Sequence record: FN394998.1
Length of the DNA: 2,827 nucleotides
Reading direction: 5' to 3' (one strand)
Source: Enterobacteria phage CUS-3
Shown: positions 2,180-2,827 of the stretch, in pieces
How the letters are laid out: every line of letters begins with the position of its first letter
Numbering within the stretch: position 1 is the first letter of the stretch
Translations under genes and position numbers: made by a program
The notes under the pieces: model-generated
What the model saw: only the letters and a program-made list of their open reading frames with translations
What the model was told of the DNA's origin: nothing
Databases searched by the model: none

Positions 2180-2827
2180 ATGTCGTTTTCCGTTGATGAT
2201 AATGGATCAGGTAATATTTTTGTATGTGGAGATCTTGTAAATAGCAAAGAGAATAAAGTTCAGTTCAATGGAAACAATAACAAACTTATTATAGAAGATG
2301 ATGTTGAGTGTCGATGGCTTACCGTAATATTTAGGGGTGATAATAATTACGTAAGAATACATAAAAACAGTAAGATTAAAGGTGATATTGTCGCAACAAA
2401 AGGTTCAAAAGTTATTATCGGTAGAAGAACGACAATAGGTGCAGGTTTTGAAGTCGTCACTGATAAGTGCAATGTTACAATTGGCCATGACTGCATGATA
2501 GCAAGAGATGTTATTTTGCGTGCATCAGATGGGCATCCTATATTTGATATTCATAGCAAAAAAAGGATTAATTGGGCAAAAGATATCATTATATCTAGTT
2601 ACGTATGGGTAGGGAGAAATGTCTCTATAATGAAAGGGGTATCTGTTGGAAGCGGATCTGTCATTGGGTATGGGAGTATTGTAACTAAAGATGTGCCATC
2701 TATGTGTGCAGCAGCCGGTAATCCAGCAAAAATAATAAAAAGAAATATAATATGGGCAAGAACGGATAAAGCGGAGCTAATTAGTGATGACAAGAGATGC
2801 TCCAGCTATCATGCGAAGCTCACGCAA
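2180..2827 (+). CDS. neuO: Hexapeptide-repeat (left-handed beta-helix) O-acetyltransferase, NeuO-like polysialic acid O-acetyltransferase; 3' end runs off the window; true start may lie upstream in masked 1763-2179
   Basis: My own translation from ATG 2180: 'MSFSVDDNGSGNIFVCGDLVNSKENKVQFNGNNNKLIIEDDVECRWLTVIFRGDNNYVRIHKNSKIKGDIVATKGSKVIIGRRTTIGAGFEVVTDKCNVTIGHDCMIARDVILRASDGHPIFDIHSKKRINWAKDIIISSYVWVGRNVSIMKGVSVGSGSVIGYGSIVTKDVPSMCAAAGNPAKIIKRNIIWARTDKAELISDDKRCSSYHAKLTQ'. It has imperfect hexapeptide repeats ([LIV]-G-x-x-x-x), a 'DGHP' catalytic-His motif and a C-terminal 'AGNPAKIIK' motif typical of LacA/Maa/NodL-type acetyltransferases. Counting from the Met at 2180 gives His119 (2534-2536) and Trp143 (2606-2608), which match my recollection of the residues reported as essential in NeuO; that recollection is unverified. 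Position directly downstream of an endosialidase tailspike fits the CUS-3 arrangement. GC is about 25-35% versus about 45-50% upstream. Confidence 0.75.
   Translation, partial: MSFSVDDNGSGNIFVCGDLVNSKENKVQFNGNNNKLIIEDDVECRWLTVIFRGDNNYVRIHKNSKIKGDIVATKGSKVIIGRRTTIGAGFEVVTDKCNVTIGHDCMIARDVILRASDGHPIFDIHSKKRINWAKDIIISSYVWVGRNVSIMKGVSVGSGSVIGYGSIVTKDVPSMCAAAGNPAKIIKRNIIWARTDKAELISDDKRCSSYHAKLTQ

Follow-up and report, generated by a model that had tools for sequence, protein, structure and literature searches.

The gene at positions 2180–2827 of the analysed stretch of DNA (the window, the whole 2827 bases) is almost certainly canonical neuO, carried as cargo by CUS-3, a P22-like temperate phage of Escherichia coli K1, as judged by the near-complete agreement of its product with NeuO proteins. 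neuO is a textbook prophage cargo gene: what it modifies is both its own phage's receptor and, in the K1 capsule, a major virulence factor. It possesses a distinctive mechanism of translational phase variation and dosage. The gene is already known, and the window contributes nothing new to it; its discovery reportedly dates from 2005, with publications on its biochemistry in 2007, its typing in 2009, its structure in 2011, and its role in phage defence in 2022 and 2026. The 216 residues encoded in the window are the complete NeuO core, and the element that controls expression is absent from the record.

Identity of the gene at the 3′ end of the window

A single open frame spans the block at 2180–2827 up to its last base. 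The block has a GC content of 0.361, at which so long a frame would escape stop codons by chance with a probability of approximately 6e-9. The product contains a hexapeptide-repeat domain, which corresponds to a left-handed β-helix (Pfam PF00132, E 4e-11), and many solved β-helix acetyltransferases match it in a search of all PDB sequences. The top match is 3JQY, the crystal structure of NeuO, with 214 of 215 residues identical (99.5%, 475 bits, E 1.6e-142). The sole mismatch is Ile12 in the window for Val12 in 3JQY; Val is also found in the CUS-3 NeuO of RS218, and the Ile12 allele is the common one in the sampled chromosomes. The protein of the complete CUS-3 genome (CP000711) likewise shows 99.5% identity, and the window protein is identical to the products of nine CUS-3 genotype records and of phage phiv205-1, as well as to the chromosomal copies in all ten sampled E. 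coli over 215 residues. Furthermore, the typing record FN394999 is annotated ‘neuO: K1 capsule O-acetyltransferase’ at the same coordinates. Taken as a group, the CUS-3 NeuO entries (3JQY; CP000711; FN394986–FN395002 and FN394218) share with the window the two catalytic residues, the genomic position, and the layout of 2827 bases.

The two motifs singled out in the original prediction, DGHP and YVWVG, are both present, with the His at residue 119 and the Trp at residue 143, and both align with the corresponding residues of OatWY. When NeuO is numbered without its heptads, the residues important for catalysis are His119 and Trp143 (PMC3046976). Every feature of the NeuO family that this record allows to be read from the sequence is found in the product, which places it within this family, and counter-evidence to the identification was found nowhere in the analysis. 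The CUS-3/neuO paradigm that the original prediction had proposed is borne out by the match to 3JQY and by the identity to the CUS-3 records.

The original prediction had also assigned the product to the LacA/NodL family, an assignment that stands at the level of the superfamily only. LacA, Maa, and WbbJ share the left-handed β-helix superfamily and the acetyl-CoA chemistry with NeuO, and they do match the window protein (LacA, 1KQA, E 8e-19; Maa, E approximately 1e-16); LacA, Maa, and WbbJ are also the top models in NCBIfam, which has no NeuO model among its families. That the gene encodes a housekeeping or polysaccharide-locus hexapeptide acetyltransferase of the LacA, Maa, WbbJ, or WcaF type, with no more than a resemblance to NeuO, is nevertheless hardly conceivable. 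The NCBIfam scores are 76.7 bits against a curated cut-off of 347 for LacA (NF007076), 65.7 against 314 for Maa (NF007499), and 63.9 against 243 for WbbJ (NF007240), far under the cut-offs of these families, and the LacA, Maa, and WbbJ identities were rejected on these scores. The NeuO match stands at 475 bits, and the native copies all lie in a prophage beside the tailspike and the integrase. Best matches to housekeeping enzymes had been named as grounds for abandoning the original prediction; NeuO (E 1.6e-142) and OatWY (E 3e-31) both rank ahead of LacA and Maa. For enzymes of the LacA, Maa, and WbbJ type, the substrates are small molecules or LPS, and the subunits have a parallel arrangement (PMC3046976).

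The original prediction had left undecided the choice between canonical neuO and a divergent paralogue. A divergent NeuO paralogue acting on another substrate, e.g. in the manner of OatWY on a heteropolymeric sialic acid capsule, carries next to no probability. OatWY of Neisseria meningitidis W-135/Y (PDB 2WLC–2WLG) is the second-best match and the closest distinct homologue (2WLC, E 3.2e-31, 111 bits), and its catalytic His and Trp are conserved. However, its identity to the window protein is just 33% over 184 residues, that of a homologue and below the level of an orthologue, compared with 99.5–100% for NeuO. The identity values rule out the divergent-paralogue reading and answer the question in favour of canonical neuO. 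OatWY is also described as NeuO's nearest structural homologue, with the same tilted trimer (PMC3046976). It acts on Glc/Gal–sialic acid heteropolymers, resides in a capsule locus rather than in a prophage, and does not possess the heptanucleotide repeat domain (PMC3046976, with general background).

Public annotation of neuO is well behind the literature. The PHROGs family that holds NeuO (phrog_30105) matches the window protein with E 1e-156 and is labelled ‘unknown function’. Meanwhile, the gene is called ‘general stress protein’ in phage phiv205-1 and a generic ‘acyltransferase’ in RefSeq.

Composite record and the tailspike fragments

Runs of N at 439–538, 1031–1321, and 1763–2179 divide the 2827 bases of the window into four readable blocks. 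A megablast comparison with phage records retrieved 17 GenBank typing records (FN394218, and FN394986–FN395002 minus FN394998), each of 2827 bases and described as ‘Enterobacteria phage CUS-3 partial proviral terminase gene, siaK1 gene and neuO gene, genotype GT_x’. The CDS features of these records, at 1–438, 539–1030, 1322–1762, and 2180–2827, are the blocks of the window. From FN394999, the nearest of the compared records, the window differs by two bases only, at 1484 and 1500, both in siaK1. The most likely origin of the typing records is the neuO/CUS-3 typing study by Mordhorst et al. 2009, as far as its citation in PMC3046976 indicates. The features of the window are collected in Table 1.

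Table 1. Features of the 2827-base window, with the evidence for each
Feature	Position	Strand	Evidence and remarks
Terminase small subunit fragment	1–438	+	phrog_309, E 2e-68; joined in the database record only, outside the module
siaK1 endosialidase tailspike fragment, β-propeller	539–1030	+	PF12217, E 1.6e-104; 100% identity to CUS-3 siaK1; siaK1 in FN394999
siaK1 fragment, covering the last part of the tailspike (stalk) domain and the start of the C-terminal intramolecular chaperone	1322–1762	+	PF12219, E 1.2e-32; PF13884, E 1.4e-11
417-N run	1763–2179		Hides the tailspike 3′ end (1763–2026) and a 153-nt intergenic region (2027–2179), as mapped onto CP000711
neuO CDS (polysialic acid O-acetyltransferase)	2180–2827	+	216 codons, with the poly-psi repeat excised; the stop codon lies outside the window
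Start codon and repeat excision junction	2180–2191	+	ATGTC/GTTTTCC, cut between 2184 and 2185
Catalytic His119 codon (DGHP)	2534–2536	+	Translation; aligns with the OatWY His; role from PMC3046976
Catalytic Trp143 codon (YVWVG)	2606–2608	+	Translation; aligns with the OatWY Trp; role from PMC3046976

The complete CUS-3 genome (CP000711) has the gene for the terminase small subunit at 22265–22705 and siaK1 at 2526–5471. Because the two genes are approximately 18 kb apart, the 100-N run at 439–538 is an arbitrary spacer. Mapped onto CP000711, the other two N runs preserve the true CUS-3 distances. Typing amplicons have been strung together artificially in the window, which is not a contiguous piece of DNA; in a composite record of this kind, neither the gene adjacency nor the missing repeat is to be over-interpreted. 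The original prediction, made from the sequence alone, was right on the gene, but the concatenation and the missing phase-variation repeat had both escaped it.

The terminase fragment was assigned to no family by Pfam or NCBIfam and was identified by PHROGs instead. Among the markers it is the most divergent from the CUS-3 of RS218, at 97.7% versus 99.5–100% for siaK1 and neuO, which is consistent with mosaic module exchange among CUS-3 genotypes.

The endosialidase tailspike that had been predicted upstream of neuO is confirmed by three Pfam domains (PF12217, PF12219, and PF13884) distributed over two fragments, and the second fragment shows 99.8% identity to CUS-3. On the CUS-3 mapping, the tailspike gene ends at window position 2026, and its final 264 nt are concealed by the last N run. 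The expected place of neuO immediately downstream of the tailspike is unreadable in the window, where 417 N lie between the two genes, and is seen in the native loci, where neuO follows the tailspike stop. For the window, we infer the adjacency of the two genes across the N run, and its verification comes from the related records only.

The concealed intergenic region contains a candidate neuO promoter at 4597–4625 of the CUS-3 locus (L002), equivalent to window positions 2135–2163, with a sigma-70-like pattern at 10 of 12 positions and an extended −10 element; in CUS-3, the site is 17 nt upstream of the neuO start codon. In a scan of the neuO upstream region, promoter-like sites were no commoner than in shuffled sequences, and no promoter is claimed.

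Native loci and the phase-variation repeat

Eleven native loci, from the complete CUS-3 genome and ten chromosomes, were compared. In all of them, exactly 153 nt separate the tailspike stop from the neuO ATG. neuO and the integrase gene (in EC931 and SW4848, its remnant) are convergent, and in IMT5155 a tRNA-Arg is situated beyond the integrase. Every native locus examined is a prophage with neuO located between the endosialidase tailspike and the integrase (or its remnant) and is not a capsule locus; a native place in a chromosomal polysaccharide locus, which the original prediction had counted against itself, was found in none. Of 5426 complete E. coli genomes, 161 have neuO, in every case as a chromosomal gene; no plasmid carries it. 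In 50,697 phage records, it appears only in CUS-3 entries and in the CUS-3-like phiv205-1, and the next best phage match, from an Enterococcus phage, has 35% identity. The neuO region has a GC content of 0.34–0.37 and the tailspike and integrase genes one of 0.42–0.50, a difference to be expected if the cargo gene was acquired.

Several loci depart from the common arrangement. In EC931 (L008) and SW4848 (L012), at 2388–3645, the neuO end adjoins ybhB/bioA with an 84-nt integrase remnant, instead of intS and tRNA-Arg (argW), which points to a second insertion site or to a rearranged, decayed prophage; two locations are mentioned in PMC9659370. In the APEC strain IMT5155 (L004, 1–4718) and in DE17 (L010), the tailspike gene is cut short at its 5′ end by an IS66 element and carries a pseudogene annotation; the neuO beside it has 18 repeats and is an intact, in-frame gene. 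In these two strains, the cargo gene is retained while the phage decays. The 161 genomes hold 172 neuO-matching places, with two or three in a few genomes, e.g. NZ_CP082824.1, and the extra places are possibly second CUS-3-like elements or remnants; extra elements or remnants of this kind are described for strain CE10 (PMC9659370). In addition, a GC-rich hairpin followed by a T-run is located on the minus strand at L002 5494–5513, just past the 3′ end of the window, in the interval where neuO and int converge. The region has no other terminator-like site, and the orientation of the hairpin suits termination of int.

At its start, the neuO block of the window reads ATGTCGTTTTCC, which is the native sequence minus the whole repeat, and the frame stays open (M-S-F-S...). 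The native loci read ATGTC(AAGACTC)10–35GTTTTCC, with ATGTT... in RS218, in accordance with the published insertion of the repeat two nucleotides after the start codon (Schulz 2011). At the other end, the window stops on the last sense codon, and the next codon in CUS-3 is TAA. The repeat-less form with the fixed length of 2827 bases is common to the window and all 17 typing records, which likewise contain no stop codon. Since the repeat was excised from the record, the window is uninformative on the ON or OFF state of the gene.

The numbers of AAGACTC copies in CUS-3 and the ten E. coli chromosomes are 19, 18, 10, 12, 20, 35, 31, 18, 34, 23, and 11. Three of the eleven counts are divisible by three and give full-length open reading frames of 244–258 residues; the other eight terminate after 28–101 residues, and the reference CUS-3 of RS218, with 19 copies, is OFF. 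In the literature, the copy number changes by slipped-strand mispairing, the gene is ON only at multiples of three, and each three copies encode one RLKTQDS heptad, by which the catalytic efficiency is raised (PMC3046976). Of 64 complete genomes, 65.6% were reported as phase-OFF (PMC13001214). The counts obtained here match both the published mechanism and the OFF figure.

These proportions bear on the state of the source strain. That the gene is canonical neuO in the OFF phase, with no enzyme and no capsule modification at the time of sequencing, is rather probable given how common the out-of-frame state is among the sampled loci and the published genomes. The repeat-less window offers evidence neither for nor against this reading, and the OFF phase is a reversible state rather than a loss of the gene. 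By comparison, it is very unlikely that the source strain had an unusual neuO state (a copy number outside the published 2–93, or a repeat-less gene that is constitutively ON) or that Ile12 differs functionally from Val12, and nothing in the data points to either.

The repeat also affects how the gene is annotated. In seven loci (L005, L007, L008, L009, L011, L012, and L013), RefSeq represents phase-OFF neuO as the 111-residue ‘acyltransferase’ WP_011478229.1, at locus coordinates 1813–2148 or 5313–5648. It starts at the internal Met105 and is missing the N-terminal half of the β-helix, whereas in-frame alleles are annotated at 244–258 residues. The 111-residue annotation is an artefact of the frameshifting repeat.

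Function of NeuO and its relation to other conversion systems

NeuO is a homotrimeric left-handed β-helix enzyme. Using acetyl-CoA, it acetylates sialic acids at O7/O9 in α-2,8 polysialic acid that is 14 residues or longer, an activity established for a protein 99.5% identical to the product of the window (PMC3046976). According to the literature, catalysis depends on His119 and Trp143 at the subunit interface. The gene occupies its phage position 153 nt downstream of the tailspike, converging on the integrase, and slipped-strand mispairing of (AAGACTC)n two bases after the ATG acts as a stochastic switch of expression. Full-length enzyme is made only at copy numbers divisible by three, with the efficiency rising as each three copies add a further RLKTQDS heptad. 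Acetylation is reported to alter the antigenicity of the capsule and to render lysogens less susceptible to K1-capsule-specific phages. The prophage probably benefits from this through modification of the receptor recognised by K1 phages, its own tailspike included.

In published experiments, acetylation makes lytic K1-specific phages and neutrophils less effective at killing, and it raises serum susceptibility (PMC9659370, PMC13001214). The transcription of neuO depends on the host regulator DsdC (PMC9659370). Such effects leave room for another view of selection, in which the main role of neuO is a benefit to the host, through immune evasion or resistance to neutrophils or desiccation, rather than a phage-related modification of the receptor. 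This view is a serious possibility that falls somewhat short of being probable. Survival against neutrophils is increased (PMC13001214), escape from Siglec-mediated immunity is reported (PMC8653822), and so is desiccation resistance (Mordhorst 2009, as cited in PMC3046976). On the other hand, two independent studies found that neuO protects against lytic K1 phages (PMC9659370, PMC13001214). The host and phage roles are not mutually exclusive, and their ranking lies beyond sequence analysis.

In P22-like phages, serotype-conversion genes such as gtrABC of P22 and oac of Sf6 are cargo located beside the tailspike, near the integration end of the genome. They modify the same polysaccharide that the tailspike of the phage recognises and cleaves, which is the logic also seen for neuO. 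By this analogy, neuO appears to parallel the tailspike-adjacent serotype-conversion genes functionally. The P22 Gtr glucosyltransferases and the Sf6 membrane acyltransferase Oac are unrelated to NeuO, however, and their target is the O-antigen and not the capsule. Compared with these P22 and Sf6 conversion genes, the repeat-driven translational phase variation and the heptad-based tuning of dosage are, to our knowledge, particular to neuO.
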